DNA from: Eubacteriales bacterium
GTDB taxonomy: Bacteria > Bacillota > Clostridia > Oscillospirales > UMGS1783
Assembly: GCA_045631845.1 (NCBI GenBank)
Contig: JAZQVM010000067.1
Location: 1 to 58,200, forward strand
Direction: 5' to 3'
DNA length: 58,200 nt
In this document: piece by piece, positions 6,691-8,571 of the stretch
Position numbering within the stretch: the first letter of the stretch is position 1
Layout of the letters: every line of letters starts with the position of its first letter
Program-made: the position numbers and the translations under genes
Notes under the pieces: generated by a model
What the model saw: only the letters and a program-made list of their open reading frames with translations
Told to the model about the DNA's origin: nothing
Database searches by the model: none

Positions 6691-6699
6691 TGTTATAAT
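6691..6699 (+). promoter_or_regulatory. Extended -10 promoter element (TGtTATAAT) ahead of the TIR-like/Fpg-like pair
   Basis: TGTTATAAT at 6691-6699 in the 113-nt gap after the second HEPN-type gene. A weak hairpin plus T-run follows at about 6708-6732. Confidence 0.4.
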
Positions 6700-6798
6700 G
6701 GTAATTAGACAGAAAGTTTTTGTCGTTTTTTGAAAATGAATAACTGTAACTGTTTGTTTAATTCTTATTTGAGTATCATTGGGACGGAAGAGGTATAA

Positions 6799-7794
6799 AT
6801 GAAACCTAAAGTTTTTATCGGATCCTCGGTAGAAGGATTAAAAATTGCAAATGCGATCCAAGCGCAACTCGATTATTCTTGTGAAACTACGGTTTGGAAA
6901 GATGGCATATTTAAGTTATCCAAAAATACGCTGGAGTCATTGGAAAAAACTCTAAATGATATGGAATACGGCATTTTTGTTTTTTCACCAGATGATATTT
7001 CGAAAATTCGAGATAGTGAAAAACCAACGGTGCGTGATAATGTATTATTTGAATTTGGTTTGTTCATGGGTAAATTAGGAAGAGAAAAAGTCTTTTTCGT
7101 AGTCCCAGAAAAATGTAAAGACTTGCATCTTCCAACAGATCTATTGGGAATTAATAAAGGCGTATATTTTGAAAGATCTGATGACAATATGCGTGCTGCA
7201 GTAAACACTTTTTGTGAAGAAGTAAAAGAAGCAATAGAATCATGCAAACTAAATAACTATGGTTTAATAAAATATGGGATGTTTCAAGAATTCGCAAATG
7301 AAATTTCTTTTGCATTAACCCATAGCGAAAATGCAACCCTGTATTTCATTCATTCAAGAAGTTGGAGAGAAAATAATCATAATGCTATCATTGATTTTTT
7401 GCAGAATAAAAACAGCAATAAACTTACTGTTTTTTTGCCTGATTTTCTAAATCAAGAATTAATGAATAGTTTTAGAGATAATTTTTCAGATGGAAAACAT
7501 ATACCAAACCTTATTGAAGATGCTGTAGAATTCTTTTTGGAGCTAAAGGATGATTATCCTGAAAAAGTTGATGTTCGTTTATATTCTTTCTATCCCACAT
7601 ATTCTTTTTATATGTTTGATAAGACAACCATATTTGCTCTGTATCCAACTACAGACCGGAAGAAAAATGTGCCTACATTTATGATAAATAATGCATCTGA
7701 GTTTTATCGATTTGTATTGGATGATTGCTTAGCTTTAAAAAATACATCTATTGATGTAACAGAAACTCACTTGTCAAAGATAAAGGAGGATTAA
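6799..7794 (+). CDS. TIR-like (CAP12/Pycsar-effector type, PF10137-like) N-terminal domain protein with an uncharacterised C-terminal domain
   Basis: KVFIGSS...FVFSPDD...VRDNVLFEFGLFMGKLGREKVFFV...LPTDLLG matches the conserved pattern of predicted nucleotide-binding TIR-like proteins, including the FE(L/F)G glutamate. The C-terminal ~170 aa has no match I can recognise. Confidence 0.7.
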   Translation: MKPKVFIGSSVEGLKIANAIQAQLDYSCETTVWKDGIFKLSKNTLESLEKTLNDMEYGIFVFSPDDISKIRDSEKPTVRDNVLFEFGLFMGKLGREKVFFVVPEKCKDLHLPTDLLGINKGVYFERSDDNMRAAVNTFCEEVKEAIESCKLNNYGLIKYGMFQEFANEISFALTHSENATLYFIHSRSWRENNHNAIIDFLQNKNSNKLTVFLPDFLNQELMNSFRDNFSDGKHIPNLIEDAVEFFLELKDDYPEKVDVRLYSFYPTYSFYMFDKTTIFALYPTTDRKKNVPTFMINNASEFYRFVLDDCLALKNTSIDVTETHLSKIKED

Positions 7795-7797
7795 TAT

Positions 7798-8571
7798 ATG
7801 CCAGAATTACCAGATTTGCAAGTTATTGCTGAGAACTTAAAAAAAATATATTCCAATAGTTGTTTAGAAGATATATATTTAGCAGATTCGGCTAAGGTTA
7901 ATGCCGATATTACAGCATATAACGTAGCACTAGTAGGTAAAAAAGTTGAAACTATCTTTAGGTTTGGAAAAGAAATCGGAATTGTTTTTGAGGGCGGTCA
8001 TTCTTTATACCTGCATCTTATGCGAGAAGGTAAATTTTTTAAATCAGATGTCGATGTAAAAAGTGTAGTTTTAAAATTACGCTTTTCTGATGGTAAAATG
8101 TTAGTAATGAACGATTTTATGAAACAAGCCAGAGTTTTCCTTGACCCTGAATTGACTGATGTTCCCGATCCCCTTGATGGGCAGTTTACAATAGAATATT
8201 TAAAGAAACGACTTTTAGAAAAAAACAGAACAGCAATTAAAGCTTTTTTAATTGATCAGGATAACATTTTGGGAATAGGAAATGCATATGCAGATGAGAT
8301 TTTATGGGAAACTAAGTTGGCGCCTGCCTCTAAGTGTGGCAACATACCAGAAAATGTAACAATTCATTTGTATGAAAACATTCGTTTAGTATTAGAAAAC
8401 TCTGTGCAGAAAATAAAAGAGATTGATCCTAGTATTATATCAGGAGAAATAAGAAGTTTTTTGAATGTTCATAACAAGGACAAAAAGTTATCGCCAACTG
8501 GATATGAAATATTAACGAATAAGATTGGTGGAAAAATAACTTATTTCACAGAAGAACAAATACTGTATTGA
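7798..8571 (+). CDS. Fpg/Nei-family DNA glycosylase/AP-lyase homologue, zinc-less
   Basis: GGAGGA RBS, starting 3 nt after the upstream stop. Has the MPELPDL N-terminus (Pro2, Glu3), RFGKEI...HLMREG, and the H2TH block IKAFLIDQDNILGIGNAYADEILW. The last 77 residues contain no Cys, whereas canonical Fpg has a CxxC...CxxC finger there. Confidence 0.75.
   Translation: MPELPDLQVIAENLKKIYSNSCLEDIYLADSAKVNADITAYNVALVGKKVETIFRFGKEIGIVFEGGHSLYLHLMREGKFFKSDVDVKSVVLKLRFSDGKMLVMNDFMKQARVFLDPELTDVPDPLDGQFTIEYLKKRLLEKNRTAIKAFLIDQDNILGIGNAYADEILWETKLAPASKCGNIPENVTIHLYENIRLVLENSVQKIKEIDPSIISGEIRSFLNVHNKDKKLSPTGYEILTNKIGGKITYFTEEQILY

Follow-up and report, generated by a model that had tools for sequence, protein, structure and literature searches.

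A mobile two-gene module pairing a TIR protein that carries a putative phospholipase D-like domain with a zinc-less Fpg-family glycosylase as a candidate bacterial defence system

Effectors of the cyclic-oligonucleotide-based anti-phage signalling systems (CBASS) and of the pyrimidine cyclase system for anti-phage resistance (Pycsar) combine a sensor with swappable killing modules, which are TIR domains or transmembrane (TM) segments, and are encoded in two-gene operons with an enzyme partner. The exchange of TIR and TM modules on a constant domain is the pattern of their sensor domains. In the TIR-STING proteins (SfSTING; structures 7un8 and 9lmq), an N-terminal TIR domain is followed by a C-terminal ligand sensor, and in SPARTA (short prokaryotic Argonaute, pAgo, with TIR-APAZ) a nucleic-acid-recognising partner activates the TIR NADase on the other of two proteins. 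The single-gene anti-phage enzyme Brig1, a member of the uracil-DNA glycosylase (UDG) superfamily, acts directly on DNA containing glucosylated hydroxymethylcytosine (glucosyl-hmC), and provides a precedent for a glycosylase that recognises a phage DNA base as an anti-phage component (PMC11078745). In this study, a gene pair was analysed in a 58,200-nt stretch of an Eubacteriales bacterium (assembly GCA_045631845.1, contig JAZQVM010000067.1, positions 1 to 58,200 of the forward strand; hereafter the window). The first gene (6799..7794, + strand) encodes a 331-aa protein, TIR-X, in which an N-terminal TIR domain is fused to a C-terminal domain termed X, and the second (7798..8571, + strand) encodes a 257-aa zinc-less homologue of the Fpg/Nei-family DNA glycosylases/apurinic-apyrimidinic (AP) lyases. 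The pair is a conserved, horizontally mobile two-gene module.

The pair is like the CBASS and Pycsar effectors in its TIR subfamily (PF10137), in the union of a sensor with exchangeable modules and in its two-gene operon with an enzyme partner, but the partner is a DNA glycosylase or a ~160-aa protein, U160, and the sensor would have a phospholipase D (PLD) fold rather than a cyclic nucleoside monophosphate (cNMP)-binding, SAVED or STING domain. It shares the domain order of TIR-STING, whereas X does not have the STING fold and no c-di-GMP-producing partner lies beside TIR-X. The likeness to SPARTA, which is also a two-protein system with a nucleic-acid-recognising partner, is limited to the TIR domain, and the pair contains neither Argonaute nor APAZ. 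Unlike Brig1, the Fpg-like partner belongs to the Fpg/Nei superfamily, has another fold and is obligately paired with a TIR or TM protein. With Fpg/MutM, Nei, zinc-less NEIL1, the plant and fungal Fpg and mimivirus Nei1 it has in common the Pro-Glu start, the lysine of RxGK, the H2TH domain and a basic residue of the hairpin; it differs from them in that its gene, within this clade, is carried by mobile elements and has its translation coupled to that of a TIR or TM effector gene.

No CD-NTase or nucleotide cyclase was found with PADLOC and Pfam in the neighbouring ORFs (open reading frames) of the window, nor among the called genes at ten loci of the family (L003, L004 and L169-L176). An orphan CBASS or Pycsar effector was considered and rejected, as no cyclase is present at the examined loci and the matches to these systems end with the TIR domain. 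No PADLOC model of Thoeris (ThsA of the SIR2/SLOG or Macro-TM type, and ThsB) matched the two proteins or their neighbours at an E value of 0.1 or lower. The Fpg-like protein, X, U160 and the TM-X proteins have no match in PADLOC-DB 2.0 (2023); as a system, X, U160 and the X-linked Fpg-like proteins are represented by no model of PADLOC 2.0 or NCBIfam (June 2026); and the full texts searched, about 8.3 million papers and preprints with subscription literature excluded, describe no TIR or PLD-like protein paired with Fpg/Nei. A preliminary description of the locus, made from the letters alone, had named no known defence system of this composition, and this holds: PADLOC leaves the Fpg homologue without a match and recognises the TIR protein only over its TIR domain. 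The sensor domain X and its partner are unprecedented for modules made of an effector, a sensor and an enzyme.

To define the conservation of the pair, 185,579 species-representative genomes were scanned, followed by tblastn, and the best 80 loci were classified. X was carried by only 7 of these 80 loci, and an Fpg-like gene lay immediately downstream in five of the seven. The remaining two (L009 and L011) have a conserved 160-aa ORF, U160, directly upstream, and the contig of L009 ends shortly after the gene. As controls served 74 loci that combine this TIR type with another C-terminus, and none of them has an Fpg-like gene within 10 kb. TM-X proteins, which do not carry TIR, still have the Fpg-like gene. 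The glycosylase is therefore linked to X and not to TIR, so the TIR-Fpg association put forward in the preliminary description was misplaced; in roughly half of the TIR-X proteins, the partner is U160 instead. An X-only profile scan of metagenomes recovered 377 relatives. After classification with hidden Markov models (HMMs), removal of identical sequences and a requirement for enough flanking DNA, 15 non-identical TIR-X loci remained, of which eight had an Fpg-like partner, seven had U160 and none had neither.

The adjacency is conserved across lineages, in line with the co-occurrence that the preliminary description had proposed to survey. The match lists of the two proteins share contigs, and in all Fpg-linked loci (15/15, counting both TIR-X and TM-X) the stop of the X protein and the Fpg start overlap or are separated by no more than a few nucleotides. 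The same order and tight spacing occur in Methylomonas sp. 11b, a Chitinophagaceae genome, Clostridia metagenome-assembled genomes (MAGs) and a Ruminococcaceae lineage, and the pair is spread over Clostridia, Methylomonas, Chitinophagaceae, Bacteroides and Tangfeifania, a range that includes Proteobacteria and Bacteroidota. At one clostridial locus (L170 10999-11776, GCA_009741625.1), the Fpg-like gene is frameshifted into pieces of 126 and 138 aa beside an intact TIR-X gene, which suggests that the partner is dispensable.

In the window, the pair forms a coupled operon. A promoter-like site, TTGAAA-16-TGtTATAAT (6672..6699, + strand), has 11 of 12 consensus matches and the TG of an extended -10 element; it is the best sigma-70-like match between 6500 and 9000, judged by consensus match only, and it corresponds to the TGtTATAAT element assigned earlier to the pair. 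The stop codon of TIR-X (TAA, 7792-7794) is followed three nucleotides later by the ATG of the Fpg-like gene at 7798, and the Shine-Dalgarno sequence that serves this gene, AAGGAGGA (7783..7790, + strand), lies within the 3' end of the TIR-X gene. The ORFs, motif positions, spacing, domain calls, catalytic residues and the two cysteines C22 and C180 were all found as given in the preliminary description.

The TIR domain of TIR-X, whose gene is identified as an ORF with Pfam, PADLOC and NCBIfam matches, spans aa 4-120 and structurally extends to about aa 150 (6808..7158, + strand; Pfam PF10137 CAP12-PCTIR_TIR, E 9e-33, above the gathering score). The catalytic TIR glutamate E85, in RDNVxFExG, is invariant among 84 homologues, as are D66, R79, N81 and G94. 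PADLOC models of CBASS TIR effectors reached E 1e-46 over the TIR part only; the CBASS, Pycsar and PDC-S35 models all match the TIR region alone, and the alignment of the PycTIR model with aa 2-148 is confined to the TIR part of that model (profile 151-284). In NCBIfam, Cap12 was matched at E 7e-38, NF050172 at 130.5 bits against a cut-off of 450 and over aa 1-146 only, and NF050171 at 93 bits. The PADLOC and NCBIfam matches of the whole protein are confined to its first 150-180 residues. An AlphaFold2 model of TIR-X was built on 84 sequences (mean predicted local distance difference test score, pLDDT, 91). With the TIR half of this model, the best Foldseek matches were the TIR-STING filament NADases 9lmq and 7un8 (E 1e-12 to 1e-10), and DNPH1 (~5e-4) and nucleoside 2-deoxyribosyltransferases were matched as well. 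The domain behaves as an interchangeable effector module of the CAP12/Pycsar/STING type, and it is predicted to deplete NAD+. The earlier idea that both folds of the pair act on N-glycosidic bonds is not needed.

The C-terminal part of about 170 aa, which the first reading could not assign, is a real and strongly conserved domain. X covers aa ~152-330 (~180 aa; 7252..7788, + strand), and its motifs FIHSRxWRE, LPD, HFxDG, YPTYSFYxFD, YPT and VPT recur in full-length homologues with identities as low as about 35%. No Pfam family (including PLDc), PADLOC model or NCBIfam family matches X, and its profile found nothing below E 0.2 among PDB sequences. In Foldseek, the modelled alpha/beta domain matched the C-domain of TrmBL2 (1e-6), the phosphatidylserine synthase PssA (2e-4), the DUF1669 domain of FAM83B (6e-4) and vaccinia F13 (2e-3); in a viral structure library, it matched PLD phosphodiesterases, a NucT-like nuclease and PPK-C. 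By its model, X is assigned to the PLD superfamily at fold level, and only at that level because the TM-scores are moderate. The canonical motif HxK(x)4D(x)6GSxN is not present in X: IHSRxWRE(N/H) has His-x-Arg in the place of HxK, and there is no GSxN. An invariant arginine and acidic residues are kept, and the histidine is lost in distant relatives with two TM segments. A PIN domain was also tried for the C-terminal half, on the sole match of Pfam PIN_12 (E 0.008, below the cut-off), and was dropped for the PLD-like fold after modelling.

The nearest structural relatives of X include non-catalytic PLD folds. The C-domains of TrmB, TrmBL2 and FAM83 DUF1669 are among its best matches, and fusions of a winged helix-turn-helix (wHTH) to X repeat the TrmB layout, in which a DNA-binding domain is joined to a PLD-fold domain that binds a ligand or partner; X differs from them in having no detectable sequence similarity and a motif set of its own. 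In TrmB regulators, the PLD-fold domain binds a ligand. The X family is small, with 358 clusters at 50% identity among 1.84 billion representative proteins. Partner type tracks the phylogeny of the X domain, and the motif residues are identical across classes. No relative of X or U160 was found in 2.9 million viral contigs, which contained one solo Fpg-like gene.

The Fpg-like protein retains the architecture of its superfamily. The N-terminal catalytic domain (aa 1-109; 7798..8124, + strand) contains MPELPDL, RxGK (K58) and HLMxxG and matches Fapy_DNA_glyco (PF01149, E 6e-13, likewise above the cut-off); the H2TH DNA-binding domain (aa 123-205; 8164..8412, + strand) matches PF06831 above the cut-off (E 1e-18) and contains the invariant block GIGNAYADEILW. 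The protein aligns end to end (aa 1-251) with the L. lactis Fpg structures 4cis and 1tdz. In this alignment, KCSRCG...THFC of L. lactis Fpg stands opposite KLSPTG...TYFT, such that the hairpin (aa 231-254; 8488..8559, + strand) aligns with the Fpg zinc finger with all four cysteines replaced, three of them by L, T and T, and the basic residue K246 kept. C22 and C180 are the only cysteines, none occurs in aa 181-257, and no Pfam zinc-finger domain matches the protein. It is termed zinc-less because the hairpin and its basic residue are retained without cysteines.

Across 23 X-linked and 67 other members, P2, E3, K58 of RxGK, the GIGNAYADEILW H2TH block including N162, R219 and the basic residue of the hairpin never vary, and the last 45 aa contain no cysteine in 21 of the 23 X-linked and 62 of the 67 other members. 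From these residues, the enzyme is apparently catalytically competent. The equivalog cut-offs of NCBIfam were not reached (TIGR00577 fpg, 104 vs 203; PRK01103, 100 vs 212; Nei PRK10445, 58 vs 252), and no second Fpg gene was found within the 58-kb window. On sequence grounds, the protein is not a MutM or Nei orthologue and belongs to a bacterial zinc-less subfamily of ~258 aa. The absence of zinc ligands noted earlier thus stands, while its description as unusual for a bacterial copy does not, since this subfamily is common. The X-linked enzymes are spread over several of its deep branches. Six relatives at 42-46% identity were examined and all stand alone, some in repair-like or housekeeping neighbourhoods and one adjoining an Ada-type gene. 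In Bacteroidota, ORFs of ~250 aa precede some solo Fpg-like genes (L086 and L088); they were considered as hidden X proteins and rejected, as the X-domain HMM finds nothing in them.

X is fused to several modules other than TIR. A single TM segment (L046, L096, L102 and P0366) or two (P0363 and P0365) can stand in place of TIR, and in the cyanobacterium Argonema antarcticum and two metagenome contigs a single-TM-X gene is followed by an Fpg-like gene. At L099 and L104, X is fused to an OmpR/PhoB-type wHTH (NCBIfam PhoB, E 4e-7) and adjoins U160. One protein of 1046 aa carries TIR-X at its C-terminus, and bare X proteins of ~195 aa also occur. At L177 (18-1025), a bare X protein of 198 aa is followed four nucleotides on by a small protein with a hydrophobic segment, which may be a split TM-X. 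The bare X proteins in high-GC (guanine plus cytosine) soil contigs, where ORF calling is noisy, showed no consistent neighbour. Distant X-like proteins of ~260 aa were tried as TrmB regulators and rejected, as they have no Pfam match and their N-termini are two TM helices.

The second partner, U160, is a family of ~160 aa with 1,093 matches and the precomputed Pfam label PF27709. Its genes lie at L009 (9497-9994), L011 (9487-9966) and 10 further loci (e.g. L095, L100 and L107), as partners of TIR-X or wHTH-X, and variants reach an archaeon and Saccharibacteria. Its AlphaFold2 model is of high confidence (pLDDT 92.6, predicted TM-score, pTM, 0.88), and U160 has no fold match in the PDB (best E 0.15) and no match in PADLOC, NCBIfam or PDB sequences.

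Defence genes and mobile elements surround the pair in other genomes. In Methylomonas (L003), the locus is chromosomal, with a type I restriction-modification (R-M) system and the KwaA/KwaB genes of Kiwa. In Ruminococcaceae (L173 and L174), the pair is also chromosomal, and its neighbours encode a UvrD-type helicase and a GajA-like OLD-TOPRIM ATPase. At L173 (11862-15425), the pair is directly followed by a gene for a 260-aa protein of no family and then by the GajA-like gene (AAA_15 and OLD-TOPRIM) and the UvrD helicase, a cluster that resembles a Gabija-type system extended by one gene. At four clostridial loci (L169-L172), the pair is cargo of conjugative elements with TraG, MobL and HipA_C, and in B. 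heparinolyticus (L008) it lies in a conjugative element between the coupling protein and the relaxase, beside a C5 methylase, GmrSD_N and Vsr. At L175 (6825-9784) and L176 (1313-4272) of a Clostridia MAG, the genes directly upstream of the pair encode a guanylate kinase, a protein of 568 aa that weakly matches HhH-GPD (glycosylase) and a methyltransferase; this cluster may be another DNA-modification or glycosylase-based module.

In the window, the pair is cargo of a Mob_Pre/TnpV transposon of 31% GC, and the mobile location proposed in the preliminary description is thereby borne out. The low-GC island (1..8848) is delimited by GC (31-40% vs ~51% elsewhere in the window) and Pfam content; the gene pair itself has 31.4% GC and positions 9000-58200 have 51.0%. 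The right end of the island lies between 8571 and 8849, and the left end lies off the window. Mob_Pre and TnpV at its start (94-1509, + strand) indicate the hallmarks of a Tn4451-like mobilisable element. Besides the pair and these genes, the island carries two ORFs of no assigned family, a tRNA-like gene and, by Pfam, genes for DUF2806 and an AMP-binding enzyme. DUF2806, the AMP-binding enzyme and the two ORFs were considered as parts of the system and rejected, for none accompanies the pair elsewhere; the pair is therefore taken as an autonomous unit.

We regard it as about an even chance that the pair, as an autonomous mobile two-gene module, provides abortive-infection-type protection from phages or other DNA that invades the cell. 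The X-Fpg linkage, the coupled operon, the swapping of effectors, the identity of the TIR domain, the catalytic conservation, the defence and mobile context and the absence from viral contigs support this reading, and from them we infer the defence role, its trigger and the route of signalling from the Fpg-like protein to X. The glycosylase/AP-lyase would be the DNA-interrogating component, engaging or processing a particular DNA state, e.g. a modified or damaged base in invading DNA. This event would be relayed to X through a reaction product (the excised base, a sugar remnant or a gapped end) or by direct contact. X, with its predicted PLD fold, would serve as the sensor or transducer, as in TrmB-type regulators, and would switch on the fused effector. 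The TIR NADase would then deplete NAD+ and stop the infected cell, and in sister systems a membrane module of one or two TM segments would take its place. A more specific proposal, which we put forward tentatively and consider rather unlikely, is that base excision itself is the immune signal: the released base or sugar fragment, or the gapped end, would be read by the PLD-fold sensor and trigger the TIR or membrane effectors, with U160 as a second signal generator.

Several observations weigh against the defence reading. The X-linked enzymes may simply repair oxidised bases, because their close relatives stand alone in neighbourhoods that are ordinary or suggest repair. Bare X keeps every motif with neither an effector nor a recognisable partner, which suits an enzyme no less than a sensor. 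Two structurally unrelated partners, the Fpg-like protein and U160, serve the same X, which is hard to reconcile with the relay of a single ligand. The wHTH-X fusions suggest that some members of the family regulate transcription rather than kill cells, and the defence neighbours amount to a handful of loci and not to a statistical enrichment.

Three other explanations were weighed. The pair could be a DNA-repair or nucleotide-sanitation module, which we consider unlikely. Here the Fpg-like enzyme would excise the base and leave 3'-phosphate or 3'-unsaturated-aldehyde ends, X would be a single-motif PLD phosphodiesterase (Nuc/Tdp1-like) that trims ends or adducts, and the TIR-like domain would be an N-glycosidase, similar to DNPH1 or the deoxyribosyltransferases, that disposes of the nucleotide. 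The PLD fold of the model, with His-x-Arg at the HxK place and its invariant arginine and acidic residues, fits this scheme, and so do the Foldseek matches of the TIR model to DNPH1 and nucleoside 2-deoxyribosyltransferases and the repair-like contexts of solo Fpg-like relatives. Homodimeric single-motif PLD nucleases are also comparable in size to the bare X proteins of ~195 aa, a similarity that speaks for the same scheme. However, the TIR domain is far closer to the CBASS/Pycsar/STING NADases (1e-46, and 1e-12 by fold) than to DNPH1 (~5e-4), and it is replaced by one-TM, two-TM or wHTH modules, none of which could do the work of a nucleotide hydrolase. X lacks the canonical HxK(x)4D...GSxN motif, with even the histidine lost in distant 2TM-X proteins, and the patchy, mobile-element-borne distribution with R-M, Kiwa and Gabija-like neighbours also argues against repair.

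Defence with reversed or parallel roles is likewise improbable in our judgement. X would then be the primary sensor of a phage protein, a nucleic-acid end or a nucleotide, TIR or TM one effector, and the Fpg-like protein or U160 a second, DNA-damaging effector in the manner of Brig1. That DNA glycosylases can be antiviral effectors (PMC11078745) favours this arrangement. The Fpg-like protein has invariant catalytic residues and no extra sensor domain, and its exchange with an unrelated partner is what accessory effectors often show. Nevertheless, no complete TIR-X locus is without a partner, whose translation is coupled, suggesting an obligate pair rather than an optional addition; the solo relatives resemble ordinary repair enzymes, which makes indiscriminate attack on DNA unlikely; and nothing marks U160, with no enzymatic or membrane signature and no PDB fold match, as an effector. 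A toxin-antitoxin-like addiction or stress module, in which a latent TIR-X toxin checked by, or responding to, its partner stabilises the element or answers host DNA damage and not phage, is somewhat less likely still: its location as transposon and conjugative-element cargo (with HipA_C adjoining in one element) and the tight two-gene architecture with a potentially lethal NADase are compatible with it, but an invariant glycosylase active site would be of no use to an antitoxin, the copies in Methylomonas and Ruminococcaceae lie on the chromosome among defence genes, and one genome has a frameshifted Fpg and an intact TIR-X with no evident counter-selection.

The other genes of the island and window were also recorded. 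The Mob_Pre protein is N-terminally short, as its profile match begins only at profile position 42. Adjoining Mob_Pre/TnpV on the opposite strand are the overlapping DUF2806 and AMP-binding enzyme genes (1623-4335, - strand). The tRNA-like gene of 90 nt (4631-4720, + strand; Rfam tRNA, 42.6 bits, above the gathering score) has a -10-like TGTATAAT just upstream and directly precedes ORF 4746-5642; its anticodon could not be named by ARAGORN, since the anticodon loop has given way to a long hairpin. Two adjacent ORFs of 298 and 336 aa (4746-5642 and 5675-6685, + strand) immediately precede the pair. They match no Pfam, PADLOC or NCBIfam family and are probably separate cargo, because they stand next to the pair in no other locus. 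A plasmid database search with the island gave no match. Just right of the island, a radical S-adenosylmethionine (SAM)/SPASM gene (8849-9676, + strand) matches PADLOC viperin (pVip) over the radical-SAM core only (E 7e-14); it is probably a generic radical SAM enzyme, because its GC is host-like. The remainder of the window to the right is ordinary chromosome. A second low-GC patch (19692-21297, - strand; 39-42% vs ~51%) contains ORFs of 132 and 289 aa among chromosomal genes, and neither ORF matches a Pfam family.

If the pair is a defence system, it would represent a new family with a DNA-repair-type glycosylase as its sensing arm, in which base-excision chemistry is tied to NAD+-depletion immunity. 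If base excision is indeed the signal, it would constitute a new class of second-messenger-like immune signalling derived from DNA-repair chemistry. A new candidate sensor domain found in many fusions, X, and U160 (PF27709) as a second partner are defined here, and the question of whether a product or intermediate of base excision can act as an alarm signal is made testable, with the TIR, TM and wHTH swaps as natural controls. Even if the module is related to repair, a mobile TIR-PLD-Fpg pathway across bacterial phyla, with a U160 version in archaea and Saccharibacteria, would be unexpected.

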